A stretch of 28,186 nt of DNA, taken from the IMG/VR virus record IMGVR_UViG_3300035698_018106, positions 294,717-322,902 of that record, one strand, 5' to 3'. Source of the DNA: a virus. Positions 9,294 to 28,186 of the stretch are shown here, in pieces (positions within the stretch are counted from its first letter, which is position 1; each line of letters opens with the position of its first letter). The notes beneath the pieces are model-generated. The model saw only the letters and a list, made by a program, of their open reading frames with translations, did not search any database and was not told the DNA's origin. A program made the translations under genes and the position numbers.

Positions 9294-9463
9294 TATTCTA
9301 GAATTTGTATACCATTAATATTAAGTGAGTAATTTTCAGCAATACACCAGGATATGATCTCCTGATCATTTGCATTATCAAAGAAACAATCTCTAAATTG
9401 ATCTCTTGTCCCGAGGAAAATATAACCCTCTTCTACTTTTATACAACATTCAGAATATTCCAT
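9293..9463 (-). CDS. small protein (56 aa, MEYSECCIKVEEGYIFLG...) translationally coupled to the ABC ATPase
   Basis: hand-translated ORF below the track's length cutoff; its TAA overlaps the ATPase ATG (TAATG). Confidence 0.35.
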   Translation of the reverse strand: MEYSECCIKVEEGYIFLGTRDQFRDCFFDNANDQEIISWCIAENYSLNINGIQILE

Positions 9464-9603
9464 TAAACTAATTTAAATGATTCATTTTTAATTTCTTCTA
9501 CATCTACCTTTATTAACTAAAGATGTTTTAAAATCTCCTTTTTGTCCTATAGGTAAATAAGCTGAATTTTTCATATTTTGATATATGTGGCATAATGTAT
9601 TAT

Positions 9604-10104
9604 TTAAAATGAATAATCATAATATTCTTGTTTAACACCAAATATGATATTTACTGTTGTCCATTCAATTTTAAGTTTTGTTAAACCTTCAATTAAAGAA
9701 TTAATAAATACCCCATTATATACTCCTCCTGCCTTACTGAATGCTTCATTTAGTAATTTACCATGATTTCCATATTTTTTATGAGCTTCATCAGTGAATG
9801 TAAATCCTACATGTTTCTTTTTCCACGAACCCCATTTATAATAAAGTGTAATTGTTCCTTCAATAAGTTCATTATATTCATAAGACTGTTGATCACTCAT
9901 ACCTAATTTGTCAACTCTTTTTGGGTGGTATCGTTGAATAACAACAGATTTTGATTTTTCATTTACATCAATAACTTCATATGCATGTCTATCAGAATGA
10001 AACAACATAGTAGCTCCTTTACCAATTTCTGGAATGGTTTGATTATTGCCCATCATCCAATTAACTAAAGAACCTGTTGTATTAAAAGTTAATGATTGCT
10101 TCAT
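9604..10104 (-). CDS. hypothetical protein (166 aa from Met-14; the track ATG at 10143 lies inside the promoter core)
   Basis: the 10143 ATG is the ATGG of the conserved core ATTTGGTTATATTTA; the next ATG (10102-10104) restores the usual core-to-ATG spacing. Confidence 0.45.
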   Translation of the reverse strand: MKQSLTFNTTGSLVNWMMGNNQTIPEIGKGATMLFHSDRHAYEVIDVNEKSKSVVIQRYHPKRVDKLGMSDQQSYEYNELIEGTITLYYKWGSWKKKHVGFTFTDEAHKKYGNHGKLLNEAFSKAGGVYNGVFINSLIEGLTKLKIEWTTVNIIFGVKQEYYDYSF

Positions 10105-10120: not shown

Positions 10121-10190
10121 TTATAATAGTTAAATATAACCATTTACTATAAGAGTAAAAAATCTGAAATGTTAATAAATGTTAAAATTA
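10121..10190 (-). promoter_or_regulatory. promoter cassette copy b
   Basis: TAAATATAACCATTTACTATAAGAGTAAAAAATCTGAAATGTTAATAAATGTTAAAA. Confidence 0.5.
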
Positions 10191-10196
10191 ATTTAA

Positions 10197-10228
10197 CTAA
10201 AAAATCGACTATCTCTAGAGATAGTCGA
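10197..10228 (-). terminator. intrinsic-terminator-like hairpin + T-run (24-nt perfect palindrome TCGACTATCTCTAGAGATAGTCGA then TTTTTTAGTTA)
   Basis: 11-bp perfect stem; identical TTTTTTAGTTA tail as the 5352-5385 hairpin; just upstream of cassette b. Confidence 0.5.
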
Positions 10229-10339
10229 ATAAAATGTAATAGAAACCTGACTCCTGTAGTTTAAACAGGTTCTTTGTTTCATGATCAATAAAACAACACA
10301 TTGTATTTATATGCTAACATCAGTATTAAATATATCCTA

Positions 10340-10393
10340 TGAACCACTTTAGGATGAGCCGGTTGCCCATCATAAGGACTCGAACCTTCTATA
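10340..10393 (-). other. tRNA-like 3'-half fragment (T-arm GAAGG-TTCGAGT-CCTTA followed by an acceptor-like strand); not a complete tRNA
   Basis: minus-sense GGTTCGAGTCC T-loop consensus; no 5' acceptor/D/anticodon arms could be folded. Confidence 0.25.
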
Positions 10394-10435
10394 AATAACA
10401 AACTTACACTTTTATGGTATGCGCAACCAATATTT

Positions 10436-10606
10436 TTATTCGAAAACATTTAAAATTTTATCCCAAAATGTTTCTTCTGCTTTTAATTCAGCATCTATTT
10501 CTCTATTCATTTCTCCAGATTCAATAGATTCTGAAATTTCATTATGAATATTTTGTGCTATAATTAATCCTTCTTTTGCTTCTTCTAATGAATTAAATGT
10601 AATCAT
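10436..10606 (-). CDS. small acidic helical protein (56 aa, MITFNSLEEAKEGLIIAQNIHNEISES...)
   Basis: hand-translated, below track cutoff; sits in the otherwise empty 10144-10852 gap downstream of cassette c. Confidence 0.35.
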   Translation of the reverse strand: MITFNSLEEAKEGLIIAQNIHNEISESIESGEMNREIDAELKAEETFWDKILNVFE

Positions 10607-10614
10607 AATAATAT

Positions 10615-10764
10615 TTAATTTAATTGTTTAACATCTAATTCATACATTTTTGTATAAAAAATAATTTTATCTTCCTTAGACAATGCATCAATTGCATCTT
10701 TCATAAAATCCATTAAATTTTGACAAGATTTAACTGTCGCGCTTTTAAAATTTCCTAGTTCCAT
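10615..10764 (-). CDS. small protein (49 aa, MELGNFKSATVKSCQNLMDFMKDAIDALSKEDKIIFYTKMYELDVKQLN)
   Basis: hand-translated; the only gene here with a strong SD-like GGAGGAGGAGAT before its ATG. Confidence 0.35.
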   Translation of the reverse strand: MELGNFKSATVKSCQNLMDFMKDAIDALSKEDKIIFYTKMYELDVKQLN

Positions 10765-10790
10765 ATCTCCTCCTCCAATTATTAATAAAT

Positions 10791-10860
10791 TAATTATAGT
10801 ATAAATATAACCATTTACTTTAAGAGTAGAAAATATTAAATGTTAAAAAATGTTAAAATT
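10791..10860 (-). promoter_or_regulatory. promoter cassette copy c
   Basis: ATAAATATAACCATTTACTTTAAGAGTAGAAAATATTAAATGTTAAAAAATGTTAAAA; the stop of 10853-11794 sits inside the second TGTTAA. Confidence 0.5.
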
Positions 10861-11794
10861 CAATTTCTCCTACAATCGTTTTATTGCTCCATCCTCCAAT
10901 ATTAACAATTGAAGTTTCTAACTTACATCTAAAGTTTTCGTTTACAAACTCATATGCCTTGGAATTAATATTTTCTTTTGTATTTGCTAAGTATATACCA
11001 GTATGACTATCTTTTTGTATTATAATATCAGTTTCAACTGGATGAACATAGTGGAATGATAATTCAGGGGATGTTACAGGTATTTGATTGTTTTTATAGT
11101 AAGAAGAATTATAATTGCGATGATTTTTAGATTTATAAATCATTTCTTTAATTATTTCTTTATTATTAAATAGATTTGAATCATCATATAAATCTATTAA
11201 ATCTTTAATTCTTTTATTAGAAATAGGGAAAGATAAAATATCCCATAATTTACCTTCTTTACAAGCAAAAAAAGCACGCCGAGGTGTTTCTAATGTTAGA
11301 TGATAAGTATAATCATGATTGTATTTAACTATAATATTTTTTTGATACCAATTACCAAGATAAACCATTTCTAATCCATCTTTACATTGAGCACCTTTAT
11401 ACCAATGGCCAACTATGGCTTTAGAAATAGGAATAATATCACCCTTTTTATTTTCTAATTCTTCTTCTTTATAAAGAAGATCAATATATTCTGTATCTAA
11501 CGTCCTAATCAATTGCATTTGATGGTCAACAATATTTTCAACAAATGTAATTTCATCTTCAATTACACCATGTGTAATTGATAATCTAGTAAGTGGTAAT
11601 TGATCAAAATCTACCCAAATTTGTCTTGGTAAATATTCATGATCTATTAGAAATCCTAATTTACTATAATCAATAATTTTTAAACCTGCCATTGGTTCAT
11701 TATTAAAAGGTATTGTACCTTTACCACCAGACATTCTAATTCCGCTGCCAATGTAAGCTTTTTTAAGTAATTTTATACTACATGTATTTTCCAT
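10853..11794 (-). CDS. hypothetical protein (313 aa)
   Basis: longest ORF in the window, ATG start, preceded by a type-2 cassette (11798-11835). Confidence 0.55.
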   Translation of the reverse strand: MENTCSIKLLKKAYIGSGIRMSGGKGTIPFNNEPMAGLKIIDYSKLGFLIDHEYLPRQIWVDFDQLPLTRLSITHGVIEDEITFVENIVDHQMQLIRTLDTEYIDLLYKEEELENKKGDIIPISKAIVGHWYKGAQCKDGLEMVYLGNWYQKNIIVKYNHDYTYHLTLETPRRAFFACKEGKLWDILSFPISNKRIKDLIDLYDDSNLFNNKEIIKEMIYKSKNHRNYNSSYYKNNQIPVTSPELSFHYVHPVETDIIIQKDSHTGIYLANTKENINSKAYEFVNENFRCKLETSIVNIGGWSNKTIVGEIEF

Positions 11795-11797
11795 AAT

Positions 11798-11835
11798 TCA
11801 AATATAACCAAAATAAGTGGGATAAAAAATAATTA
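11798..11835 (-). promoter_or_regulatory. type-2 cassette (core + GGGATAAAAAA)
   Basis: AAATATAACCAAAATAAGTGGGATAAAAAATAAT upstream of ATG 11794; related copies at 26856-26890 and partly 22455-22490. Confidence 0.4.
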
Positions 11836-12270
11836 TTGTATAATTAAAGAATCTGTAAAAATATTATTATCTCCTGATGATGTTGTAATGGTTACATCAT
11901 CAGATTTTTTTATTTTAATTCTCTGTTTTTCTATTTCTTTAATACGTAATTTATATTTTAATATATTTGGAGTAAGACCTCCATATAATGTTAGTTCTAT
12001 AGGAACAAATCTTAATGAATCCCATATATGTTTAGTTGGTACTATATATTCTAAATATAAATCTGGATAATTTACTTTAAAATTAGCCAAACCATCAGGA
12101 ATTCTAGTATAATCACTGGAATAATACTTCCCATCATATTTATTAGCTAAAAATAAAGCAAAGGCTTTATTATATTTATCAACATACCTATAGCCTTGGT
12201 TATATTGTGTATTGTGTTCACATGAAACTAATAATAACAATGCTACAATAAAAATAATTAATTTTTTCAT
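11833..12270 (-). CDS. putative lipoprotein
   Basis: MKKLIIFIVALLLLVSC: n-region, h-region, lipobox LVSC; 4-nt overlap with the upstream gene. Confidence 0.5.
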   Translation of the reverse strand: MKKLIIFIVALLLLVSCEHNTQYNQGYRYVDKYNKAFALFLANKYDGKYYSSDYTRIPDGLANFKVNYPDLYLEYIVPTKHIWDSLRFVPIELTLYGGLTPNILKYKLRIKEIEKQRIKIKKSDDVTITTSSGDNNIFTDSLIIQ

Positions 12271-12872
12271 ATTTTATTTTTTTTAATGTCAAAATATTCT
12301 TCTGATAATACTTTTACTGGTTCGGTCACACCCATTACCCAAACTCCTGGTAATACATTTTCATCATATTTAAACCATTCTGGAGTTTCAATAACATCAT
12401 GAATAGTACCTTTAATTAAATTTTTAAATTCCAGAGAAAACCCTGTAAAATTTCCAATCATTATTTGATGACCGGTTTTTAAAGGGATATATGTTTTTCT
12501 ACATATAATATTAATGTCTTTATTTTCTAATTCCCCTTCATGTAGAAATATAATGTCATTTTCTGGATATTTATCTGAAACAATCTTCCTTATTTCTTTA
12601 TCATCATCATTAAAACGAGTTGTACTATCACCTATTTTATAAGGATTTGGACATTTTCCATCCTTATTATTAAGCATTCTAACTTCCTTTTTATTAGTTA
12701 AAATACGTTCAAGATCTTCGCCTTCAATAAGATTAGGTAAATCATTTTTAACTAGATCATACACACTTAGAGATGTTTCAATCTCAAATAATTTTACATA
12801 TACATGCATGGCATCGCTAGAATAACCAATCCATGATGTTAAATTTGCAATAATTTTTTTGGTATTATCCAT
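12267..12872 (-). CDS. hypothetical protein (201 aa)
   Basis: ATG start, unidirectional array. Confidence 0.5.
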   Translation of the reverse strand: MDNTKKIIANLTSWIGYSSDAMHVYVKLFEIETSLSVYDLVKNDLPNLIEGEDLERILTNKKEVRMLNNKDGKCPNPYKIGDSTTRFNDDDKEIRKIVSDKYPENDIIFLHEGELENKDINIICRKTYIPLKTGHQIMIGNFTGFSLEFKNLIKGTIHDVIETPEWFKYDENVLPGVWVMGVTEPVKVLSEEYFDIKKNKI

Positions 12873-15524: not shown

Positions 15525-15528
15525 AATA

Positions 15529-15693
15529 TTATGCTTTTCTAATTGCGTTTACTTTAGTATTTTCAAACTTTAATCCAAGTGGCGGGTGTATATATTCTTT
15601 AAACATTTTATTAACTATTCTTTCAATTTCTTCTGGGGGATAATTAATAAAAGCACTTACTGTTTCTATTTCTATTTTATAAACTGTTGCCAT
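15529..15693 (-). CDS. small protein (54 aa, MATVYKIEIETVSAFINYPPEEIERIVNKMFKEY...)
   Basis: hand-translated, below track cutoff; first ORF downstream of cassette copy e. Confidence 0.3.
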   Translation of the reverse strand: MATVYKIEIETVSAFINYPPEEIERIVNKMFKEYIHPPLGLKFENTKVNAIRKA

Positions 15694-15759
15694 AATAAAA
15701 TTTAATTTGAATACATATTATTAAATTGAATATTTCCATTAACAAATCTTTTTATTTAA

Positions 15760-15830
15760 ATTTGTAATAGTTAAATATAACCAAATTTACAATACTAGAA
15801 CAATTCTAAATGTTAAAAAATGTTAAACAT
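15760..15830 (-). promoter_or_regulatory. promoter cassette copy e
   Basis: TTAAATATAACCAAATTTACAATACTAGAACAATTCTAAATGTTAAAAAATGTTAAA. Confidence 0.5.
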
Positions 15831-16035
15831 CTTTCCATCGTATTCCGGATACTTCACCGAATATTAAATATTCTTTCTTTTTTTCACATACAACTTCGGC
15901 ACTATCTCTTCTGATATTTTGTATATCACCGTTGGGATGTGTTAACCATGTTTTATAATTAACACCTTCTGAACTTTGAAGTTTAGATCCTAATTTCAAA
16001 GCATTAGCTATCGATATTTGATAAGTTGTCATCAT
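15823..16035 (-). CDS. small hypothetical protein (70 aa)
   Basis: its TAA stop is supplied by the second TGTTAA of cassette e. Confidence 0.4.
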   Translation of the reverse strand: MMTTYQISIANALKLGSKLQSSEGVNYKTWLTHPNGDIQNIRRDSAEVVCEKKKEYLIFGEVSGIRWKDV

Positions 16036-16469
16036 GAAATATTTAGGTGGTTTTTATGACGTTTAATAAAAAGTGGGGTTAATGTTTCCATCATTTTTAA
16101 AGAAAGCTTATTCTTTGCATATAATAATTCAATTATATGCAATGGTATATCTCCGGCAGTAACAGATATTTGCCTATTTATCTCATCTTCAAACTTTTTT
16201 GCTTCTTTATTTTTAACTTTACTATTTTTGTGATTTTCTACTGCTACTCTTCCAGGTATTGATTCAACTATAGTCTGTTCAATTATATGAATATCATAAT
16301 CTGAAACAGTTGGTTGGTTTTTCAAATAAGATGGGGAATCATTAATAATGTTATCCAAGGCATTAGATGCCCAACTTAATGATTTCCAAATAGATTTTTT
16401 ACCAGTAGAATAATATTTATTATAACGAATATCCCATATTCTATATAATTTTTGTGTTTTGGTATTCAT
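16032..16469 (-). CDS. hypothetical protein (145 aa)
   Basis: ATG start. Confidence 0.45.
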   Translation of the reverse strand: MNTKTQKLYRIWDIRYNKYYSTGKKSIWKSLSWASNALDNIINDSPSYLKNQPTVSDYDIHIIEQTIVESIPGRVAVENHKNSKVKNKEAKKFEDEINRQISVTAGDIPLHIIELLYAKNKLSLKMMETLTPLFIKRHKNHLNIS

Positions 16470-16481
16470 TATATCGAATGT

Positions 16482-16760
16482 TTATTGTGTTAGTTTTTTT
16501 GGTCTTGTAACTAAAACCGTACCAAATTTCTTAATTAGAGTCATTTGAGTTTCAACCCATTTATTTGCGTTTTCCCAATCTAATTGAGTTGGCTCATTAT
16601 TACGATTTTTACCAAATGATTTCTCCATTACATTAAGCCATAATTCTGGAGATTGTCTGGATTGACTATATTTTTTACTTAAAATTTCTGCATGGACTTG
16701 CCCATGGTAAGGAGAAATTTGAGCAGTATACTCTTCGTTTTCTTTATTTCCTGTCCACAT
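16482..16760 (-). CDS. hypothetical protein (92 aa)
   Basis: ATG start. Confidence 0.45.
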   Translation of the reverse strand: MWTGNKENEEYTAQISPYHGQVHAEILSKKYSQSRQSPELWLNVMEKSFGKNRNNEPTQLDWENANKWVETQMTLIKKFGTVLVTRPKKLTQ

Positions 16761-17438: not shown

Positions 17439-17442
17439 ATTT

Positions 17443-17616
17443 TTAATTATTTTGTTTTAAAATTGCAACTTCTTCACTTAAATCTTGCATTTCACGAGCC
17501 ATAGACTTTTCTTCAATATTTGATAGAATATAACCATCTCTATTTCCATTCAATACTTTATTAAGTCTGGATATTGTAGCTTCTTTTTCTATAATATTTT
17601 TATCTAAAGATGTCAT
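17443..17616 (-). CDS. small coiled-coil protein (57 aa, MTSLDKNIIEKEATISRLNKVLNGNRDGYILSNIEEKSMAREMQDLSEEVAILKQNN)
   Basis: hand-translated, below track cutoff; first ORF after cassette copy f. Confidence 0.3.
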   Translation of the reverse strand: MTSLDKNIIEKEATISRLNKVLNGNRDGYILSNIEEKSMAREMQDLSEEVAILKQNN

Positions 17617-17625
17617 ATTGTATAA

Positions 17626-17697
17626 TTTTTAATTTAGATAAAAATAACCAATTTTACTTATTAAGAACAATATTAAATGTTAATAAATGTTAAAATG
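17626..17697 (-). promoter_or_regulatory. promoter cassette copy f (core variant AAAAATAACCAATTTTAC)
   Basis: ...TTAAGAACAATATTAAATGTTAATAAATGTTAAAA. Confidence 0.45.
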
Positions 17698-17704
17698 ACT
17701 TAAT

Positions 17705-19391: not shown

Positions 19392-19455
19392 TAGTTAAAT
19401 ATAACCAAATTTACTATAAGAGAACAATTTTAAATGTTAAAAAATGTTAAAAATT
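19392..19455 (-). promoter_or_regulatory. promoter cassette copy h
   Basis: TTAAATATAACCAAATTTACTATAAGAGAACAATTTTAAATGTTAAAAAATGTTAAAA. Confidence 0.5.
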
Positions 19456-20271
19456 AGTATATTGTTTAAGGGCAGCTTTAATAGTATCCATTGAAAAAGA
19501 CTTTCCATCAATCTCAATACTTGTATCACTTCTATTAACAACTTCTTCTGATGTTATTTTCTTAAATAAACTATTATTAACATAACATATTGTATTTTCA
19601 TTATAATGAAGTGCTAATGCGCAAATATTGTTAGTTTGATTCTTAACATACTTAATTGATGTAGGTGATTGAGTAATAGCTGCCATACAAATTTCTTCAG
19701 ATTGTTGTTTAACATATTGTAACATCTGTCCATTTATCTTTACTGCTACTAAACAAACTTTATCAAAATGTATATGAATATACTTTAATGCCGTAGGTGA
19801 TTGAGTAACTGCAACCATACAAATTCTAAGTGATTGATTTCTAACATATTGTACTGCATTCCCATTTTGTTCAACTGCTGCTAAACATATCTCCTCAGTT
19901 TGCTGATGTACTAAACATAATAGTAATCCATCTTGTTTAACGGCGGCCAAACAATTATCAAGTGTTTGTATAATAACATACTTAAAAGCATTACTATTTT
20001 GTTTAATAGCTTCTAAACAAATCTCTTCAGTTTGTTTCTTTACATATTGTAAAGCATTTGTATCTTTTCTAACAGCTGCTAAACAAATCTCTTCAGTTTG
20101 CTCATCTACAAACGTCAATGCTCCGCTATTCGTCAGAACAGCCATCATAGCCTCTCCACCAGTCAAATCACATTTTGGACCAGCATATATATAATGCTTA
20201 TCTCTATAATTTTTTAAGTGCTTAGGGCAATTTCTATTAAAAGTATCTTGCAAATGAGTTTGTTTTAACAT
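19447..20271 (-). CDS. 22-aa tandem-repeat protein (DUF4116-like), paralog 1
   Basis: about 9 repeats of EQTEEICLAAV[KR]QNG.ALQYVK plus the conserved tail IEIDGKSFSMDTIKAALKQYTNF; its stop lies inside cassette h. Confidence 0.6.
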   Translation of the reverse strand: MLKQTHLQDTFNRNCPKHLKNYRDKHYIYAGPKCDLTGGEAMMAVLTNSGALTFVDEQTEEICLAAVRKDTNALQYVKKQTEEICLEAIKQNSNAFKYVIIQTLDNCLAAVKQDGLLLCLVHQQTEEICLAAVEQNGNAVQYVRNQSLRICMVAVTQSPTALKYIHIHFDKVCLVAVKINGQMLQYVKQQSEEICMAAITQSPTSIKYVKNQTNNICALALHYNENTICYVNNSLFKKITSEEVVNRSDTSIEIDGKSFSMDTIKAALKQYTNF

Positions 20272-20618: not shown

Positions 20619-20627
20619 AATTTTATA

Positions 20628-20698
20628 ATTTTATAATAGTTAAATATAACCAAATTTACTATAAGAGAACAATATTAAATGTTAAAAAATGTTAAAAA
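20628..20698 (-). promoter_or_regulatory. promoter cassette copy i
   Basis: TTAAATATAACCAAATTTACTATAAGAGAACAATATTAAATGTTAAAAAATGTTAAAA (near-identical to h). Confidence 0.5.
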
Positions 20699-21309
20699 CT
20701 AATATATTGCTTAAGTGCAGCTTTAATAGTATCCTTTGAAAAAGTCTTACCATCAATCTCAATCTCATTATTTTCTTCTTTAAACATATCTTCCTTTACA
20801 TATTGTAATGCACGCACATCTTGTTTAACAGCTTCTAAACATATCTCTTCAGTTTGCTCATTAACATAACGTAAAGCATGACCATTTTGTCTAACAGCTT
20901 TTAAACATATCTCTGGAGTTTGTTCTAATACATATTGTAATACAAATCCATTTTGTTTAATTGCTACTAAACACATCTCTTCAGTTTGCTCTTTTACATA
21001 TTGTAATGCATCCCCATCTTGTTTAACTGCTTCTAAACATATCGCTTCAGTTTGCTCTTTAACATAACGTAATGCATGACCATTTTGTTTAACTCCTGCT
21101 AAACATATCTCTGGTGTTTGCACCCTTACATACTGTAATGCATGACCTTTTTGTCTAACTGCTTCTAAACATATCTTTTCAGTTTGCTCATTAACATAAT
21201 GTAATACATAACCATCTTCTCTAACAGCTTCTAACGCTGCATCACCAGTTAAATTACATTTATCTTCTAACTTATCATAATCACTTTTATAATCTTTCAA
21301 ATCTTTCAT
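20692..21309 (-). CDS. 22-aa tandem-repeat protein (DUF4116-like), paralog 2 (start at MKDLKDYKSDYDKL; the track's 21333 start is a TTG)
   Basis: about 8 repeats and the tail IEIDGKTFSKDTIKAALKQYISF; the N-terminus matches paralog 3; its stop lies inside cassette i. Confidence 0.6.
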   Translation of the reverse strand: MKDLKDYKSDYDKLEDKCNLTGDAALEAVREDGYVLHYVNEQTEKICLEAVRQKGHALQYVRVQTPEICLAGVKQNGHALRYVKEQTEAICLEAVKQDGDALQYVKEQTEEMCLVAIKQNGFVLQYVLEQTPEICLKAVRQNGHALRYVNEQTEEICLEAVKQDVRALQYVKEDMFKEENNEIEIDGKTFSKDTIKAALKQYISF

Positions 21310-21360
21310 TATCCTTTTTTTCATTATATTCAAATATATCTATAATCTATCACAATATAA

Positions 21361-21387
21361 AATCTAAAATGTTAAAAGATGTTATAG
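21361..21387 (-). promoter_or_regulatory. partial cassette (direct repeat only, core replaced)
   Basis: AAAATGTTAAAAGATGTTATAG upstream of paralog 2; abuts the G-free island arm. Confidence 0.3.
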
Positions 21388-21603
21388 ATATCTCTTTACT
21401 CATCTCGTACACCCACTCTAACACCCTCTCAATCTCTCACTCTTCTACTTATATTACTACATCTCACTCTATATCATTCACTGTATTTCACTAAACTAAC
21501 TCTTCTAACTCCCTTACCCTCTCTCACATATTCCCTAACCTCGCGAGCTTCCCTACATTATCACAATAATTATTTTTATAATATAACATATAATATAAAC
21601 TAT

Positions 21604-21825
21604 CTAATAAATCTCTTCAAACTTACACTCTAATACAACATCAGAACTCTTTAAAAACTCTCTCATCTTATCATAACTATAAGATATCTTATATACAACT
21701 CTATTCATACCCTTACTTGCAATAAACCCTATAGTACACATCTTCTCAGGATCCCAATCATAATATCTCTCTATCAAACATCCATCTATCACTAACATAC
21801 TATCATTATACTCTATTATCTTCAT
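21604..21825 (-). CDS. small hypothetical protein in the G-depleted island arm
   Basis: 73 aa ORF with ATG start; its coding strand is C-poor. Confidence 0.35.
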   Translation of the reverse strand: MKIIEYNDSMLVIDGCLIERYYDWDPEKMCTIGFIASKGMNRVVYKISYSYDKMREFLKSSDVVLECKFEEIY

Positions 21826-22056
21826 AACCTTAAATTTTTTTATATTTTCTATATCTCTTTAATATTAATAATATATACAAATCACAAATAAATTCTAAAC
21901 AAATCACAAACAAATCCCTACAAAGTAATCCTGTCAGGGCTCAAACCTAATCAATCAAAACGGCGCGCCTCTATCTCGAAACTGCTGTCACCTTGAGATA
22001 GTTACAGATATATAATTTCGAGTATAAGATTCTCCCTGTTTCGCCCTGAGACATAT

Positions 22057-22077
22057 AATGTAACATATGTTACAAAA
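22057..22077. repeat. 21-bp element AATGTAACATATGTTACAAAA containing a 16-bp perfect palindrome, copy 1
   Basis: exact repeat of 22112-22132. Confidence 0.6.
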
Positions 22078-22111
22078 TTTACCTTATACGAACTGTGGGA
22101 ATGGTATTAAG

Positions 22112-22132
22112 AATGTAACATATGTTACAAAA
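22112..22132. repeat. 21-bp element AATGTAACATATGTTACAAAA, copy 2 (overlaps the stop codon of 22125-22379)
   Basis: exact repeat of 22057-22077, 55 bp apart. Confidence 0.6.
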
Positions 22133-22379
22133 AGTTGATAAGAACCATATTATCTTTAGGAACTGAGTAGATTTCAATTGTATTAGAAAGAAGTTTGCAA
22201 TCAAGGATTCGGTATATGAGAGTAAAGTATTTTTGAGGGACTGTTATTTCCATTGTAGAGTAAGTAGTCCAGCATATATCGATATCTGATTTGTTTATGA
22301 ACTCGTTAGTATTTTGATATACCAGATTAATGAGTTCATTTTGCAAGTTCATTATATTATTGATATCTTTGTAGTCCAT
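22125..22379 (-). CDS. hypothetical protein in the C-depleted island arm (84 aa from MDYKD; the track's 22469 start is a TTG inside the promoter core)
   Basis: the track start is the TTG of ATTTGGTTATATTT; the first ATG is 22377-22379; the stop overlaps a 16-bp perfect palindrome. Confidence 0.35.
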   Translation of the reverse strand: MDYKDINNIMNLQNELINLVYQNTNEFINKSDIDICWTTYSTMEITVPQKYFTLIYRILDCKLLSNTIEIYSVPKDNMVLINFL

Positions 22380-22454
22380 TAGTTGGTGGATTATTTTTTC
22401 ATTTTGATTATTTAGATTAATACTGAGATTAAATGTTTTATTTTTATTAGTCAG

Positions 22455-22490
22455 TATAAATATAACCAAAATAATATAGTTAGGGCAATT
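22455..22490 (-). promoter_or_regulatory. core-only cassette variant (type-2-like)
   Basis: AAATATAACCAAAATAATATAGTTAGGGCAA upstream of 22125-22379. Confidence 0.3.
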
Positions 22491-23094
22491 AATGTGTGAT
22501 TAAATTAGATTTAATTTTATTTAGTTGTTTTAAAGTTATAGTTTTTGCGTTAGCTGTATATTCTTTGCGTATTAATATTTTTTGAGATTCTGGAAGTGTG
22601 TGATATGTTTCGCGTACACCGTGGTGGTATTTAACTATAGTAGATTCTTTCCACATAGTAGCTTTGAGGATATTATAGTATAGAGTTGAGATTATTTTCT
22701 TTTCAATTTTTGATAGGTTATATATTTGGTGTGTATTGCTCCATTTAACTAGTTTTTTATATGATAGAGGGAATTTATATTTTTCAAGTAGGTAGTTGAT
22801 AGTATGTGTGTGTGTAGTAAAGAAAGATATAGTATTGAGTTTTCTTGATTTGTTTCTTTGATTGTTGTATTTAGATTGGAGTTGTATATATTTTTCTTTA
22901 TTATTTTTTATATAGGTTTTAGTATAAGCTGCATCTTTAGCTTTATTGAGAGGGTTTGTTCTTCTTTTTTTAGTTTGTTCTTTGCTACAAAGTGAGCATC
23001 GAATTATATCTTTTTTTCCATAGTTGTAGATGTTATGGATAGTAATTACATTATGTTCAGAACAAAATTTAGATATTGTATTTATTTTAGCCAC
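22489..23094 (-). CDS. hypothetical Cys-cluster protein (N-terminal CSEHN...RCSLC), GTG start
   Basis: 201 aa ORF with GTG start (cac 23092-23094) and no in-frame ATG for about 150 codons; plus strand is almost C-free here. Confidence 0.4.
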   Translation of the reverse strand: MAKINTISKFCSEHNVITIHNIYNYGKKDIIRCSLCSKEQTKKRRTNPLNKAKDAAYTKTYIKNNKEKYIQLQSKYNNQRNKSRKLNTISFFTTHTHTINYLLEKYKFPLSYKKLVKWSNTHQIYNLSKIEKKIISTLYYNILKATMWKESTIVKYHHGVRETYHTLPESQKILIRKEYTANAKTITLKQLNKIKSNLITH

Positions 23095-23210
23095 AATTAA
23101 TTATTTAGAGGGTGCACGACTGATTAAATTTAGTATTAAAGATATAAGATAATATGTATATGATATATGAGTTGAAGAGATGATTGATAGAGTGATTGAG
23201 AGATATGATA

Positions 23211-23420
23211 TTAGTTAGTAGGTTGTTCCCAATCGATAGTACCTGTGATTACGAATTCTGTTTGGCAGTTATCGCAAGTCATTTCGGCGTAAGTTGTAGT
23301 ATCAAGAGAGTACATTGATTTGGTATCTTGTATAGATTTGTTTGTATTAGGGTTAGGTAGATAGATTGATGGGTTACCTGTTGCTCTTGTTTTGGTTGAA
23401 TTACAGTTTGGACATTTCAT
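23211..23420 (-). CDS. small zinc-ribbon protein
   Basis: CPNC...CDNC pairs; 69 aa. Confidence 0.4.
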   Translation of the reverse strand: MKCPNCNSTKTRATGNPSIYLPNPNTNKSIQDTKSMYSLDTTTYAEMTCDNCQTEFVITGTIDWEQPTN

Positions 23421-23532: not shown

Positions 23533-23718
23533 TTAGTCGATGTAGTAAGTAACTGTTGTTTCAGAGATAACATTGAAATGTTTTCTACAATGAGGGCATT
23601 GAACTAGTTCAGTAAAATCTTTGATGTTATCTTGTTTGATAGTTATGCCGCCTTGACAGTGTTTGCAATAGAGGTCAAGAGTTTCATCAGATTTAGATTT
23701 AGAAAGGATGAGGTTCAT
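23533..23718 (-). CDS. small zinc-ribbon protein
   Basis: CKHC...CPHC pairs; 61 aa. Confidence 0.4.
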   Translation of the reverse strand: MNLILSKSKSDETLDLYCKHCQGGITIKQDNIKDFTELVQCPHCRKHFNVISETTVTYYID

Positions 23719-23723
23719 ATATT

Positions 23724-24248
23724 TTAGTTTTTAAGTTTAAATATTGTTTCATCGATATCAACAGATACAACTTCAAGACCTAGCATATTGACAATACATG
23801 AGTAGTATTTAGGTCTTCTAACAAAATCAACAAGAGCTTCATTATGTTCAGAACAGAATCCATGGAATATATTAACGAATCCTAGGAAGATATCATGATG
23901 AGGATCGAGTTGATGATCATTTCTGATATCAGAAAGCATGTTTAATACTTTAGTTTCTATATTAATTTTGCGTTCCGGATTAATATTGTTTAATGTAAAT
24001 ACATGTGATATAGTAATATGATTATAGTTAACATTGGCCATAGAATAAGACTCTATATTTTCAAGAGATTCTCCGTTATAGAGTTTAAAGTAAGCTCTAC
24101 AGTAGAGGTTATCTTCTAATTTATAGATTTTATGAGATACCCCATTATAGTGTGCAGTGCAATTAGGGTATAGATGTTTAAGATATCTAACAGTTTTACA
24201 ATCTCTTAATTCTTTAGAGATAATTATATTGATTTCTATTTCTTTCAT
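23724..24248 (-). CDS. hypothetical protein (174 aa)
   Basis: first gene after degenerate cassette k (AGTTAA-N4-AGTTAA). Confidence 0.45.
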   Translation of the reverse strand: MKEIEINIIISKELRDCKTVRYLKHLYPNCTAHYNGVSHKIYKLEDNLYCRAYFKLYNGESLENIESYSMANVNYNHITISHVFTLNNINPERKINIETKVLNMLSDIRNDHQLDPHHDIFLGFVNIFHGFCSEHNEALVDFVRRPKYYSCIVNMLGLEVVSVDIDETIFKLKN

Positions 24249-24267
24249 ATTTTTGAATTTGTATATT

Positions 24268-24326
24268 GTAAATATAATTAATATTACTATAACAGAAAAA
24301 TATTAAAAGTTAAATAAAGTTAAAAT
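24268..24326 (-). promoter_or_regulatory. degenerate cassette k (AGTTAA-N4-AGTTAA)
   Basis: AAATATAATTAATATTACTATAACAGAAAAATATTAAAAGTTAAATAAAGTTAAAA. Confidence 0.35.
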
Positions 24327-25294
24327 GATTTATTTACATCTATTTTTCTTTCAAAAGATAGTAAAGCGTTTTTAATATATTCATGAGGATATTCATTACC
24401 TTCGAAAATAATAGCAGATTGTTTTGGGAACATGTAATTATTAACATACATTAATGCTTTTATGTTTTGTTTAACAGCTCCTAAACATATCTCTTCAGTT
24501 TGTTCTTTAACATAACGTAATGTTTCTCCATCTTGTTTAACAGCAGCTAAACATATCTCTTCAGTTTGCTCTAATATATATTGTAATGTATTACCATTTT
24601 GTTTAACAGCTCTTAAACACATCTCTTCAGTTTGCTCATTAACAAATTGAAATGCATTACCATTTTGTTTAACTGCTTCTAAACATATTTCTTCAGTTTG
24701 CTTCTTAACATAACGTAATGCATAACCATTCTTTCTAACAGCAGCTAAACATATCTCTGGAGTTTGCTCATTTACAAAACGTAATGCATAACCATTCTTT
24801 CTAACAGCTTCCATACACATCTCCTCAGTTTGCTCAATTTGCTCATTAACATATTTTAATGCATAACCATTCTTTCTAACAGCTTCTAAACAAATCTCCT
24901 CAGTTTGCTCTTTAACATAGTATAATACAAATCCATGTTGTCTAACTACTTCTAAACATATCTTTTCAGTTTGTTCTTTAACAAATTGAAATGCATTACC
25001 AATTTCTTTAACTGCTTCTAAACATATCTCTTCAGTTTGTTCTTTAACATATTGTAATGCTAAACCATTCTTTCTAACAGCTTCCATACACATCTCCTCA
25101 GTTTGCTCATTTACAAAACGTAATGCTTCATTATGTTGTTTAACAGCTGCTAAACAAATCTCTGGAGTTTGTTCCTTAACAAATTGTAATGCGTTACCAT
25201 CTTGTTTAACAGCTTCTAACGCTTCTTCACCAGTTAAATTACACTTGTTCTTTAACTTATCATACTTACATTTATAATCTTTCAAATCTTTCAT
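24320..25294 (-). CDS. 22-aa tandem-repeat protein (DUF4116-like), paralog 3, longest (324 aa)
   Basis: about 12 repeats; divergent C-terminal tail; its stop lies inside cassette k; preceded by cassette l. Confidence 0.6.
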   Translation of the reverse strand: MKDLKDYKCKYDKLKNKCNLTGEEALEAVKQDGNALQFVKEQTPEICLAAVKQHNEALRFVNEQTEEMCMEAVRKNGLALQYVKEQTEEICLEAVKEIGNAFQFVKEQTEKICLEVVRQHGFVLYYVKEQTEEICLEAVRKNGYALKYVNEQIEQTEEMCMEAVRKNGYALRFVNEQTPEICLAAVRKNGYALRYVKKQTEEICLEAVKQNGNAFQFVNEQTEEMCLRAVKQNGNTLQYILEQTEEICLAAVKQDGETLRYVKEQTEEICLGAVKQNIKALMYVNNYMFPKQSAIIFEGNEYPHEYIKNALLSFERKIDVNKSF

Positions 25295-25310
25295 TATGTT
25301 TTTGTTTTAA

Positions 25311-25380
25311 ATTTATAATAGTTAAATATAACCAAATAGGTTGATAATAAAAAATATTAAATGTTAAAAGATGTTAAAAA
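25311..25380 (-). promoter_or_regulatory. promoter cassette copy l
   Basis: TTAAATATAACCAAATAGG...AAAAAATATTAAATGTTAAAAGATGTTAAAA. Confidence 0.45.
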
Positions 25381-26080: not shown

Positions 26081-26318
26081 TGTTAATCCATTCCATAATA
26101 ATTTCTACATTCTCATCTCCAACAAAATCATGATTGATTTGGAAATTACCTGGACCTGAGACATCTATTAAAACGATACCATAAGGATCGCCAAAGGAGT
26201 TTTCCTTTTCATCTTCAACTAGTTGATTGAATTCTTCAATTGCAGATTCCTTGTAAGAATTGTCACCATAGAACTTAATGTTCGTATAATCCGCTGTATT
26301 AACTACGATTGCTAACAT
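26064..26318 (-). CDS. small acidic protein (84 aa)
   Basis: first gene after cassette copy m. Confidence 0.45.
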   Translation of the reverse strand: MLAIVVNTADYTNIKFYGDNSYKESAIEEFNQLVEDEKENSFGDPYGIVLIDVSGPGNFQINHDFVGDENVEIIMEWINNDNED

Positions 26319-26334
26319 AATGTTTTTGTTTTAA

Positions 26335-26403
26335 ATTTATAATAGTTAAATATAACTAATTTTACTATAAGAGAGCAATGTTAAATGTTAAAAGTTGTTA
26401 AAT
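26335..26403 (-). promoter_or_regulatory. promoter cassette copy m
   Basis: TTAAATATAACTAATTTTACTATAAGAGAGCAATGTTAAATGTTAAAAGTTGTTAAA. Confidence 0.45.
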
Positions 26404-26469
26404 GTATATAGTGACATTTAGTGATATGTATTTAAAGAGATGTATATACATATTAACCAGACTGTAGTG

Positions 26470-26506
26470 ATAAAAAAATCCTATCTAGAGTTACCCAGAT
26501 AGGATT
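26470..26506 (-). terminator. intrinsic-terminator-like hairpin + T-run (AATCCTATCT-loop-AGATAGGATT then TTTTTTT)
   Basis: 10-bp perfect stem 20 nt after the membrane-protein gene stop; 7 T in the gene sense. Confidence 0.5.
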
Positions 26507-26526
26507 TTGAATTTTTTCTTATAATA

Positions 26527-26820
26527 TTATTTCTTTGGTTTTGTTATAGATTGTCTACTTAGTATACCAATGAGCCATATTAATCCAATACAGACTAAAT
26601 AAGGCAGACTTGATGGTAGAGTACCATTAGAGACTAAAGTTGGTAACACAGTAGGTATTACAAATGGCCATAGAAAGAATAGAATAATTCCTGAAATAAT
26701 AGATTTGAATAAAATACCGAAAATGGATAAACATACTCCCCAAATAATACCTAGTCCTATTGCCAATGTCCCCCAAATAAAACTAAAAAACATGCCTAAA
26801 AGTCCTACAATTGTTCTCAT
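26527..26820 (-). CDS. small polytopic membrane protein (3-4 TM helices)
   Basis: 97 aa, almost entirely hydrophobic helices with a KPKK tail; preceded by a type-2 cassette; terminator hairpin 20 nt downstream. Confidence 0.5.
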   Translation of the reverse strand: MRTIVGLLGMFFSFIWGTLAIGLGIIWGVCLSIFGILFKSIISGIILFFLWPFVIPTVLPTLVSNGTLPSSLPYLVCIGLIWLIGILSRQSITKPKK

Positions 26821-26855
26821 ATACGTTTGTTTTAATTATTAATTATAAATAGAGA

Positions 26856-26890
26856 TTAAAAATAACCAAAAAGATTGGGATAAAAAAGTT
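26856..26890 (-). promoter_or_regulatory. type-2 cassette (core + GGGATAAAAAA)
   Basis: AAAAATAACCAAAAAGATTGGGATAAAAAAGTTT about 40 nt upstream of ATG 26820. Confidence 0.4.
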
Positions 26891-27182
26891 TAATTTAAGT
26901 TTTAATAAGTTATTTTTAAGTGCCGGAGAATTCAATAGAGTAGAAATGATATAGTAATATAAGTAGAAAATTGCCCATTCATCCCTTAGGGGGATATATC
27001 ACATTCAGTTTTTAGTTGATTGGTATTATGTATTTTAGAAAAAGACATAAAAAAACTCCTACTAATCTATATAAAGATTAATAGGAGAAAAAACTAGGTA
27101 AATATTGCAACGATTAATTTTATTTTTGTCCACCTTTTAATAGAGCATCGAATCGAACGATATTTGGTGATAGTTGTTAACC

Positions 27183-27204
27183 AGGGGAATTACGCCCCAC
27201 CCCT
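27183..27204 (-). terminator. GC-rich hairpin (AGGGG-loop-CCCCT) about 8 nt after a gene stop
   Basis: the only G/C-only stem in the window; no T-run. Confidence 0.2.
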
Positions 27205-27211
27205 ATATCTT

Positions 27212-27580
27212 TTATACTTTGAAAGATGTTCTTTGTTTATATTTAGAAATATGTTCTGTTGCAATTATTAAAGCTATATCTAAATTATTAGGAATTGCAG
27301 TTTTCTTTGGATTGCCTTTATGAAAAGCAAATGAGGTTGATCTTACTTCTTGTCTTGCCCATAAATCTCCTTTACCTCTTGATAAGTTACCTTTGGTAAT
27401 ATTATAAACATATACCATTGGGTAGGGATTAGTAGTTATTTGGATAAAAGTATAGATTAAACCAAATCTAGCATCTGATCTTTCATATATTTTAAAAGTA
27501 GAAGTTTTCATAATAAATGTTCCTACCTTAGTATAATCTTCATATTGTTGTAAAGACTTTTTTACTTTAATTTTTTCCAT
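27212..27580 (-). CDS. hypothetical protein (122 aa)
   Basis: first gene after cassette copy n. Confidence 0.45.
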   Translation of the reverse strand: MEKIKVKKSLQQYEDYTKVGTFIMKTSTFKIYERSDARFGLIYTFIQITTNPYPMVYVYNITKGNLSRGKGDLWARQEVRSTSFAFHKGNPKKTAIPNNLDIALIIATEHISKYKQRTSFKV

Positions 27581-27604
27581 GATGTATATTGTTTAAATTT
27601 GTAT

Positions 27605-27668
27605 AAGATAAATATAACCATTTGCTTTAACAGTAAAAAATATTAAATGTTAAAATATGTTAAATGTT
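27605..27668 (-). promoter_or_regulatory. promoter cassette copy n
   Basis: ATAAATATAACCATTTGCTTTAACAGTAAAAAATATTAAATGTTAAAATATGTTAAA. Confidence 0.45.
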
Positions 27669-27733
27669 TTTAGTGATATTTAGTGCATTATAATAGTATT
27701 CTTTGAAAAAGTCTTACCATCAATCTCTACTTT

Positions 27734-28186
27734 TTATAAAAATAGATCCTCTTTAACATACTTTAATGCTTTTATGTTTTGTTTAATAGCAGCTAAACAG
27801 ATTTCTTCAGTTTGTTCTAATACATATTGTAATGCATAACCATTTTGTCTAACTGCTTCTAAACATATCGCTTCAGTTTGTTCTTTAACATATTGTAATG
27901 CAGAAGCATGTTGTTTAACAGCTTCCATACACATCTCCTCAGTTTGCTCATTTACATAACGTAACGCTTCTCCATTTTGTCTAACAGCAGCTAAACATAT
28001 CTCTTCAGTTTGCTTTTTAATAAATTGTAATGTATGACCGCTATGTTTAACAGCTTCCATACACATCTCCTCAGTTTGCTCAGTTTGCTCATTAACATAT
28101 TTTAATGCATAACCATTTTGTTTAACTGCTTCTAAACAAATCTCCTCAGTTTGTTCTAATACATATTGTAATGCTAAACCATTTTG
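27734..28186 (-). CDS. 22-aa tandem-repeat protein (DUF4116-like), paralog 4; 5' end lies beyond the window; C-terminus cut short by an in-frame TAA
   Basis: the frame stays open from 28066 to the window end (..QNGLALQYVLEQTEEICLEAVKQNGYALKYVNEQTEQTEEMCMEAV..); the conserved tail KVEIDGKTFSKNTII is in frame but 3' of the TAA at 27734. Confidence 0.5.
   Translation of the reverse strand, partial: QNGLALQYVLEQTEEICLEAVKQNGYALKYVNEQTEQTEEMCMEAVKHSGHTLQFIKKQTEEICLAAVRQNGEALRYVNEQTEEMCMEAVKQHASALQYVKEQTEAICLEAVRQNGYALQYVLEQTEEICLAAIKQNIKALKYVKEDLFL

Follow-up and report, generated by a model that had tools for sequence, protein, structure and literature searches.

The subject of this analysis is a stretch of 28,186 nt from the IMG/VR virus record IMGVR_UViG_3300035698_018106 (positions 294,717 to 322,902 of that record; the whole stretch is hereafter called the window). 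Within it we focus on an island of small genes and spacers between two DUF4116 genes, in which G and C change places between the strands on the two sides of a non-coding centre at 21.85-22.13 kb, an arrangement that we call a compositional dipole. The window has 27% G+C and is densely filled with short open reading frames (ORFs); at 20.3-28.1 kb, every ORF of at least 60 amino acids (aa) lies on the minus strand. Since a promoter module and two homologous proteins are shared with the IMG/VR viral contig 3300001335_000384 (35% G+C), the window looks like the early-gene region of an uncultured phage. The island and its edges hold the following features, where no strand is given if none applies.

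20692-21333, minus strand: left flanking DUF4116 gene (Pfam E=3.6e-49), likely start ATG at 21309
21312-21387, minus strand: degenerate promoter module (TTAACAT twice ... TTGGTTATATTTA) upstream of the left DUF4116 gene; repeat family D2
21388-21603, minus strand: non-coding spacer of the left arm, 216 nt; sense strand nearly C-free and G-rich, with GGG, GAGAG and GTGAG words
21604-21825, minus strand: ORF73, a small gene almost without C
21797-21876: AT-rich tract overlapping the ORF73 start and the region upstream of it; candidate DNA-unwinding element
21877-21916, plus strand: 3.6 tandem copies of the 11-nt unit ACAAATCACAA (Tandem Repeats Finder, period 11)
21925-22058: switch core with balanced G and C, holding GGCGCGCC (21962-21969) and a hairpin with a 9-bp stem (~21972-22002)
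22057-22077 and 22112-22132: two identical 21-nt repeats AATGTAACATATGTTACAAAA, 55 nt apart, each with a perfect 16-bp palindrome
22125-22379, minus strand: ORF84, the first right-arm gene; the mechanical ORF extends to a TTG at 22469
22489-23094, minus strand: ORF201, N-terminal zinc finger and helical domain
23095-23210, minus strand: non-coding spacer of the right arm, 116 nt; sense strand nearly G-free and C-rich
23211-23420, minus strand: ORF69, a small zinc-ribbon protein with CxxC...CxxC motifs and weak zinc-ribbon Pfam matches
23533-23718, minus strand: ORF61, a small CxxC zinc-ribbon protein with weak zinc-ribbon Pfam matches
23724-24248, minus strand: ORF174, which heads the right-arm transcription unit
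24250-24325, minus strand: promoter-like module that has lost its G's, upstream of ORF174 at the outer edge of the strong right arm; repeat family D2
24320-25294, minus strand: right flanking DUF4116 gene (Pfam E=9e-78)

Read along the minus strand, the promoter module 24250-24325 is followed by ORF174, ORF61, ORF69, the 116-nt spacer, ORF201, an exact promoter motif TTTGGTTATATTTA at 22457-22470 and ORF84, which is 84 aa long in public gene calls. After ORF84 come palindrome 2, palindrome 1, the core, the 11-nt repeats, the AT tract and ORF73, and finally the 216-nt spacer, the degenerate promoter module and the left DUF4116 gene.

A local compositional dipole

A first-pass annotation, made from the letters alone, had described a nearly G-free left arm with about 9 G in 21385-21850 and a nearly C-free, G-rich right arm at 22135-23215. 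Recounting the plus strand bore out both, with 12 G vs 129 C in the former (A 152, T 173) and 81 C vs 203 G in the latter (A 316, T 481), including zero C in 23125-23215. The longest G-free runs of this strand (174 nt at 21751-21924, 122 nt at 21249-21370, then 96, 75 and 59 nt) tile 21249-21924, and the longest C-free runs measure 107 nt (23121-23227), 61 nt and 58 nt. Over the whole stretch, GC skew computed per 200 nt has a mean of -0.17 and a standard deviation (sd) of 0.24. The 15 most negative of these values (to -0.875) all fall within 21261-21721 and the 15 most positive (to +0.69) all within 22401-23301. Cumulative GC skew reaches its minimum at about 21.5-22.0 kb and the sign changes inside 21925-22130, so the switch that the annotation had placed across the non-coding segment is present as a local mirror-image change centred on 21.85-22.13 kb. 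All ORFs of the island lie on the minus strand, again as had been claimed, and because the genes are co-oriented ordinary sense transcription cannot produce both signs of skew.

The shift touches intergenic DNA, synonymous sites and amino-acid content, neutral and coding sites alike, and is most extreme in the intergenic spacers. On the sense strand, the intergenic region 21310-21603 contains A.38, C.03, G.26 and T.33, compared with.06-.13 C and.05-.16 G in typical intergenic DNA; the right spacer contains A.34, C.22, G.03 and T.41. ORF73 has a coding-strand skew of +0.82, with C at a share of 0.01 at first and 0.00 at third codon positions (C3) and G at 0.31 at third positions (G3). Typical genes have third-position shares of ~0.10 G and ~0.05 C, and right-arm genes 0.02-0.10 G and 0.17-0.31 C. 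The coding skew is -0.30 in ORF84 (C3 0.21), -0.42 in ORF201, -0.37 in ORF69 (C3 0.24) and -0.33 in ORF61 (C3 0.31, G3 0.02), and it is weaker in ORF174 (-0.09, C3 0.17). For two-fold synonymous codons we determined, by region, the C-ending share of those ending in a pyrimidine (NNY) and the G-ending share of those ending in a purine (NNR).

Left of 17.4 kb: NNY C share 0.11, NNR G share 0.13
17.7-20.6 kb: NNY C share 0.11, NNR G share 0.21
ORF73: NNY C share 0 (0/25), NNR G share 0.67
Right arm, 22.1-24.2 kb: NNY C share 0.40, NNR G share 0.04
25.5-27.6 kb: NNY C share 0.24, NNR G share 0.12
Beyond 28.5 kb (locus L032): NNY C share 0.10-0.13, NNR G share 0.12-0.18

A sweep of the skew, which the annotation had proposed for telling a genome-wide switch from a local anomaly, showed the anomaly to be local. 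The spike decays over ~1-2 kb leftward and 5-6 kb rightward, and in locus L032, which reaches 10 kb past the right end of the window, synonymous and gene-level skews are normal again by ~28.5 kb. Normal composition in this 10-kb extension rules out a genome-wide replication skew step.

Neither the sequence nor its genes are artefacts. The same genome is present in public assemblies of several samples at ENA, JGI and Logan. An assembly artefact was ruled out because L001-L004, the contigs from these sources that were fetched and compared over the island, show 100% identity to the window. Neighbouring genes of the island are present in further samples. Each public assembly of this genome ends within DUF4116 repeats, which limits these contigs as a guide to presence or absence of the island. 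The plus strand contains all three stop codons and short ORFs only, by which we rejected spurious ORFs or plus-strand genes in another genetic code. The longest ORF of the left arm was matched in 1/1000 shuffles and that of the right arm in 0/1000, as was an ORF of the length of ORF174 (0/1000). With minus-strand ORFs so far above shuffles and with 28 homologs of ORF201, the island ORFs are not chance products.

The arms had also been suggested to be diverged terminal inverted repeats. This suggestion was not borne out: the left arm aligns with the reverse complement of 23095-23230 at a score of 30, while shuffles score 24.9 +/- 4.1 and 30/300 dinucleotide shuffles reach 30, and the words shared between the arms are no more than composition predicts. 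Pfam and PHROG scans of the six island proteins revealed no transposase or recombinase.

ORF201, promoter modules and DUF4116 paralogs

An exhaustive profile-free search yielded 28 homologs of ORF201 besides itself, all of ~200 aa and 26-38% identical. The family has ten invariant columns, including the zinc ligands C11, H14, C33 and C36, all of which are retained in the window copy, and the AlphaFold2 model of the protein has a predicted local distance difference test score (pLDDT) of 94. It has no Pfam family, no sequence match in the PDB and no fold match in the PDB or BFVD libraries. The two sequences of the ORF201 cluster both come from DNA identical to the window and probably differ only by the translation of the GTG start. 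In seven distinct phage-like contigs the homologous genes have coding skews of +0.14 to +0.38, as do their neighbours, and on this comparison of sequences the reversed composition of the window copy is a derived, local state. The protein shows it as well: the share of amino acids with GNN codons is 0.119 in ORF201 vs a family mean of 0.223 and minimum of 0.191, and threonine makes up 0.104 vs 0.041 in the family. Positional strand bias can thus strongly reshape a protein, with ORF201 keeping its invariant residues while losing half its GNN codons.

About 60 changes were inferred in ORF201 relative to the family consensus, and they bear on the proposal of the annotation that strand-specific cytosine deamination, editing or hypermutation had shaped the arms. 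A strand-specific cytosine or adenine deaminase would here have acted on single-stranded DNA in one episode, which we hold to be very improbable. G>A is indeed the commonest of these changes (12 of ~60). The right-arm shifts at two-fold sites of the sense strand correspond to G-to-A (NNR G from 0.13 to 0.04) and T-to-C (NNY C from 0.11 to 0.40), with ORF73 as their mirror image. Two-fold sites, however, register only transitions, so that their transition pattern is not diagnostic, and transitions dominate only there; overall, the substitutions are a mix with many inferred transversions (A>C 10, A>T 9, G>T 5). G+C is the same or higher, not lowered (0.26-0.30 vs 0.27). The depleted strand of the spacers shows no rise in T, and A and T are nearly unchanged there, the net change being an exchange of G for C; at four-fold sites A and T shift in the direction opposite to deamination. 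Moreover, the genes are still open and conserved residues are intact. The balance of composition largely refutes hypermutation.

Native sequences around the island allow a second comparison. On the minus strand of the window, ~15 genes are preceded by a promoter-like module of ~76 nt, and the following 10 kb add at least 10 more such genes. The module has the form TTTTAACATnTTTTAACAT, 24 nt, TTTGGTTATATTTA (also written TTTGGTTATATTTAAC), and lies ~35 nt ahead of the ATG. Examples outside the island, to which copies in L032 and at L013:741-795 can be added, are:

20622-20697, minus strand: promoter module
25304-25379, minus strand: promoter module
19396-19452, minus strand: promoter module
10802-10858, minus strand: promoter module

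Some of the L032 copies carry a stem-loop CCCAGACTTTTTTAGGTCTGGG between the two motifs. On the left of the dipole, the module 21312-21387 matches the motif with 2 mismatches and has 13 G and 4 C on its sense strand, where nine left-hand copies average 7.8 G and 6.8 C. It is the most G-skewed copy. On the right, the module 24250-24325 has the GG of TTTGGTTATATTTA replaced (TATTAATTATATTTA) and contains 5 G and 8 C. All four modules at 24.3-27.7 kb have more C than G.

The flanking DUF4116 genes belong to a set of at least five paralogs built of 66-nt (22-aa) repeats at 61-83% identity, with third-position C of 0.00-0.03:

19447-20271: DUF4116 paralog
20692-21333: DUF4116 paralog, left flank of the island
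24320-25294: DUF4116 paralog, right flank of the island
27734-28066: DUF4116 paralog
Right end of the window: DUF4116 paralog
L032:6915-8039 and 9050-9847: DUF4116 paralogs

The left flanking gene, itself with internal 66-nt repeats, is a paralog of 24320-25294. When their 5' regions (promoter module and gene start) are aligned, the left copy has G at 28 of the differing sites and the right copy at 15. The derived state of ORF201 and the side-dependent shifts of modules and DUF4116 copies argue for an in-place process, and judging from these comparisons the dipole appears to have arisen in place.

This weakens the annotation's alternative of a foreign insert, which nevertheless stands as a live rival in the form of mosaic acquisition. 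The two arms, ORF174 to ORF84 on the right and ORF73 with its spacer on the left, would then be separate cassettes. Donors differing in strand composition would have supplied them, recombination at promoter modules would have placed them between DUF4116 paralogs, and their mirror image would be a coincidence of neighbouring imports. Such a setting is familiar from T4-type phages, where promoter early stem-loop (PeSL) promoter-terminator cassettes mediate modular gene shuffling (PMC2839356, PMC4122927). Here likewise, the island units are flanked by DUF4116 paralogs and by a ~76-nt module that recurs at least 15 times before small early genes, in some copies with a stem-loop. Motif sequences differ from those of PeSL cassettes, shuffling at the modules of this genome is hypothetical, and shuffling alone predicts no mirror image.

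Codon usage and skew of the island are unlike the rest of the window and its edges lie at recombination-prone repeats. The strong right arm stops exactly at a promoter module and leaves the embedded DUF4116 gene unaffected. Apart from ORF201, no homologs were detected for the island proteins: ORF73 had none, ORF174 none in a word-indexed search, and the proteins other than ORF201 had no match in the fetched related loci. ORF201 itself belongs to a family that moves. In one related contig, the N-terminal zinc-finger domain of the family forms a fusion with an HNH nuclease motif, and in two phage-like contigs the family lies directly upstream of a Thg1-like (tRNA-His guanylyltransferase) gene, while the window gene is located elsewhere:

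L014:11133-11525 and 11529-12284: locus of these arrangements
L018:10001-10597 and 10582-11334: locus of these arrangements

Against this stands the lack of a known donor with more C than G on the coding strand, all of the distinct contigs with ORF201 homologs (7/7) having more G than C. Searches of phage records, IMG/VR and protein collections gave identical island copies only, so that the block was not found elsewhere. The native promoter modules and the DUF4116 N-terminus drift by side, the intermediate values at 25.5-27.6 kb suggest a gradient and not a block, and the spacers are more extreme than the genes. Finally, two opposite extremes would have to meet by coincidence at a palindrome-rich non-coding centre. 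Taken together, we regard mosaic acquisition as unlikely.

The non-coding centre, the left spacer and possible replication initiation

The AT-rich tract 21797-21876 is the second least stable 80-bp window in 28 kb (-77.3 kcal/mol vs a mean of -91.9, sd 5.2), and the switch core is the locally most stable duplex (-104 to -110 kcal/mol per 80 bp). Within the core, GGCGCGCC is present as the annotation had said, but it is not the only GC-rich run of the window. The arms of the reported hairpin at ~21972-22002 also exist, yet its stability is no greater than that of shuffled sequence. For the 296 nt of the centre, folding z-scores of -1.6 and -2.9 and sub-hairpins no better than shuffles gave no convincing sign of structured RNA, and no Rfam family matched. 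We also considered CGCG or GC-rich palindromes as special sites and rejected them, their frequency being ordinary.

The 11-nt repeat zone includes two 20-nt copies at a distance of 22 nt, and the unit ACAAATCACAA is found at this single spot of the window. These repeats could be iterons or activator-binding sites. A scan of viral contigs for a shared iteron yielded unrelated ACAAATC microsatellites only, and this candidate was dropped.

Two perfect 16-bp palindromes TGTAACATATGTTACA had been reported and are indeed present at 22059-22074 and 22114-22129, where 0.04 are expected by chance. They have the form GTA-N8-TAC, and their half-site TAACAT is also the direct-repeat motif of the ~15 promoter modules. 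The 21-mer AATGTAACATATGTTACAAAA that contains them occurs in four unrelated viral contigs (L009:3666-3717, L011:6188-6236, L010:216-236 and L012:7193-7213), which points to a common protein-binding site and not to homology, and it was therefore discarded as a lineage marker. In L009 and L011 it lies directly upstream of portal genes, with two exact copies 28 nt apart in L011 and a near-copy ~30 nt away in L009. L010 also carries a ThyX-like gene. The 21-nt repeats with their palindromes are probably operators or other protein-binding sites, and their distribution suggests that a widespread regulator binds there, which may belong to the CRP/NtcA type and be encoded by the host.

Sites of this kind could serve as bidirectional operators, which leads to divergent transcription as a cause of the dipole. 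A strong rightward promoter in the centre would send C-poor antisense RNA of several kb over the right arm and a leftward promoter would transcribe ORF73. More G than C on both outward-reading strands would result either from a transcription-associated asymmetry that affects the non-template strand or from selection that keeps the outward RNAs Rho-resistant; the antisense RNA would regulate the island genes. Both outward strands are in fact C-poor and G-rich, which is the bias of sense strands elsewhere in the genome, and stochastic termination would fit the decay with distance. A plus-strand sigma-70-like match, GTTACA-18-TATTAT (22124-22153), overlaps palindrome 2, but such sites are as frequent in the sequence as in shuffles (35 vs 34.5) and none of the ~15 native promoter modules lies on the plus strand. 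The right arm is without a plus-strand ORF, rightward U-rich RNA would hybridise poorly, and the transcript would have to reach ~5-6 kb despite oncoming transcription from several leftward promoters. We consider divergent transcription unlikely.

The left spacer stands out by its predicted affinity for RNA. In a scan for R-loops with nearest-neighbour hybrid values, 21378-21577 came out as the predicted best 200 nt of 28 kb for RNA:DNA hybrid vs duplex stability, with an energy of -20.1 kcal/mol vs a mean of +5.0 (sd 6.8; z about -3.7). A 24-nt direct repeat lies inside this spacer. Four GGG tracts at 21511-21553 of the minus strand fall within 43 nt, with loops of 3, 13 and 15 nt, and more GGG tracts occur at ~21412 and ~21425; they might fold into a G-quadruplex with long loops or lend stability to a displaced strand. 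The right spacer in turn contains 3.4 copies of a 12-nt unit at 23167-23209 (tandem repeat call).

C-rich, G-poor, unstructured RNA defines Rho-utilisation sites, and the composition of the spacers might accordingly be under selection at the level of RNA. The right-arm mRNA would be kept G-poor, C-rich, unstructured and Rho-sensitive, with the 116-nt spacer as a Rho-loading site or translational leader, and the left-arm RNA would be kept C-free as a Rho-resistant transcript or a functional G-rich non-coding RNA, the whole serving temporal or conditional control of early genes. It fits that the spacers are the most extreme and gain the favoured base (G+C 0.25-0.29 vs ~0.20 in typical intergenic DNA), that the strong right arm is one promoter-to-centre transcription unit and that the embedded DUF4116 gene, a separate unit, is exempt. 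Such selection leaves unexplained why opposite extremes abut, why units at 25.5-27.6 kb are partly shifted and why position governs the drift of a promoter module and of the DUF4116 N-terminus. Neither an Rfam family nor significant structure turned up. We judge RNA selection to be rather improbable. Should the cause be regulatory after all, through Rho-sensitive and Rho-proof transcripts or a long antisense RNA, the island would be an unusual case of gene control encoded in base composition.

The dipole is real and unusually strong, it very probably arose in place, and we consider it best read as a short-range, spike-like form of an origin-type skew switch. A local origin or terminus had been proposed, and the sign agrees with an origin, not with a terminus: the cumulative skew has its minimum at the centre and both outward strands are G-rich. 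A sign change at one point, decay over kilobases and independence of gene direction are best fitted by outward DNA synthesis. We therefore favour, tentatively and at a likelihood somewhat below even, a phage replication-initiation zone at 21.85-22.13 kb, possibly R-loop-primed, with the arms as its mutational and selective footprint. That replication and not another strand-asymmetric process is at work, and that an R-loop takes part, is what we infer from this geometry. The AT tract, the 11-nt repeats and the palindromes would be the origin-like features of the centre.

In such a zone, a leftward transcript begun in the centre or at the ORF73 promoter would be a C-free, G-rich RNA, which would form a stable RNA:DNA hybrid (R-loop) over 21.38-21.58 kb, beside the easily melted AT tract. 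DNA synthesis would begin at the R-loop and run outward for a few kb before normal coupled or recombination-dependent replication takes over. The outward-reading strand (minus on the left, plus on the right) would repeatedly be displaced as single-stranded DNA and serve as lagging-strand template. Displaced strands would gain G and lose C over time, an effect that would fade with distance and that would add to the usual excess of G over C on coding strands on the left and subtract from it on the right. In a rough fit, a baseline of +0.2 with ~0.6 added on the left or subtracted on the right gives +0.8 and -0.4, in line with the observed +0.82 for ORF73, -0.30 for ORF84 and -0.42 for ORF201.

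Several observations weigh against replication initiation. Pfam and PHROG scans of 20 window proteins, including all those of the island, found no initiator, helicase, primase or polymerase. The substitution pattern lacks the C-to-T and A-to-G signature of single-strand deamination and G+C is not falling. Skew polarity is not kept along replication arms, the pattern being a spike and not a step. The decay is much shorter leftward than rightward, and the right arm is not R-loop-prone for rightward RNA. Several promoter modules are as unstable as the AT tract, which is hence not unique, and the 11-nt repeats and palindromes could equally well be transcription-factor sites; a transcriptional role is possible, given that the promoter modules use the palindrome half-site as their motif and that the 21-mer stands ahead of portal genes in unrelated phages. 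The DUF4116 gene 24320-25294 has normal composition (skew +0.36, C3 0.02) within the affected zone, which needs explaining, gene conversion among paralogs and a recent arrival being two candidates. Module copies further right are mixed in their balance of G and C, partly since some carry a GC stem-loop, and we gave up this balance as a long-range test. No comparable dipole was seen in the fetched parts of three related contigs.

Comparison with known systems places the dipole between several types of initiation region. As at the GC-skew switch of bacterial and phage origins, the plus strand turns from C-rich to G-rich at a non-coding, AT-rich, repeat-bearing segment with a cumulative minimum. 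Those switches are steps that persist along a replichore, whereas the one described here is a spike that fades in ~1-6 kb, it has a much greater amplitude (-0.87 and +0.69 over 200 nt), and neither an initiator gene nor DnaA-type boxes were recognised.

In phage T4, oriF and oriG combine a promoter with a downstream AT-rich unwinding element and are R-loop-primed, and oriE has 12-nt iterons (PMC3016281). Without helicase, T4 leading-strand synthesis halts after ~2.5 kb, and later replication is recombination-dependent (PMC3016281). The scale of the right arm matches this uncoupled reach of ~2.5 kb. Like the T4 origins, the centre lies in an early or middle gene region with promoter-like elements and an AT-rich tract beside short, evenly spaced repeats, and, as at oriF and oriG, the downstream transcript is strongly predicted to stay hybridised. 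By analogy with T4, recombination-dependent late replication would leave no genome-wide skew step. In contrast to T4, the R-loop here is a thermodynamic prediction, the promoter is putative, and no sequence or protein homology to T4 origins or replication proteins emerged. To our knowledge, no such compositional dipoles have been reported for T4 origins.

Vertebrate mitochondrial DNA has a strand-asymmetric gradient that is attributed to the time spent single-stranded during strand-displacement replication, and in it C>T and A>G transitions dominate genome-wide. The island resembles it in the strong depletion of G on one strand at synonymous sites, graded from the putative initiation region, and in the protein composition that is dragged along; abortive initiation of the D-loop kind would give a short range. 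The island differs in that G is exchanged for C with little change in A and T, antisymmetrically and over a few kb only. We think it possible, if rather doubtful, that the phage has a short-range strand-asymmetry field centred on an origin or R-loop and able to rewrite functional co-oriented genes, stripping nearly all G from one coding strand and nearly all C from the other over a few hundred bases and halving the GNN codons of a conserved protein; if so, it would be a kilobase-scale counterpart of the mitochondrial gradient.

At GC-skewed R-loop promoter regions and herpesvirus lytic origins, a G-rich non-template strand past the start favours the RNA:DNA hybrid (PMC12599619). The left spacer likewise has a hybrid-favouring G-rich strand that may be linked to initiation of DNA synthesis. 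Those regions belong to eukaryotes and nuclear viruses and are GC-rich, whereas the window has 27% G+C and its left arm alone is hybrid-prone. For most uncultured phages the origin cannot be located, since GC skew across the genome either is absent or mainly tracks transcription. If the spike were confirmed as the mark of an initiation zone, and if such dipoles were general, they would offer a sequence-only handle on initiation zones in phages whose bulk replication leaves no genome-wide skew.

Other features of the window

No DNA match to a known phage was found among 50,697 phage records. Among the available sequences there were no variants of the island from which a mutation spectrum could be read. 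Domains were recognised in few of the window's ORFs, namely DUF4116 repeats, an OmpR-type winged helix, an HD domain, a P-loop ATPase and a SEC-C motif. The window contains no tRNA that we could find and no Rfam match at gathering score, the only hits being two snoRNA matches at chance level.

Outside the island, a weaker positive skew of the plus strand (>0.15) occurs at 15921-16501, 10921-11241 and 26241-27701. Of these, we interpreted the last stretch as the tail of the dipole. An ORF at 16032-16469 has a coding skew of 0.00.

Several non-coding gaps of 270-710 nt between the small genes contain no ORF of at least 60 aa (10144-10852, 9294-9603, 15525-15822, 17439-17704 and 26821-27211), and were checked for RNA genes by the Rfam scan at gathering score. 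The 709-nt gap 10144-10852 contains two promoter modules (10169-10187 and 10840-10858).

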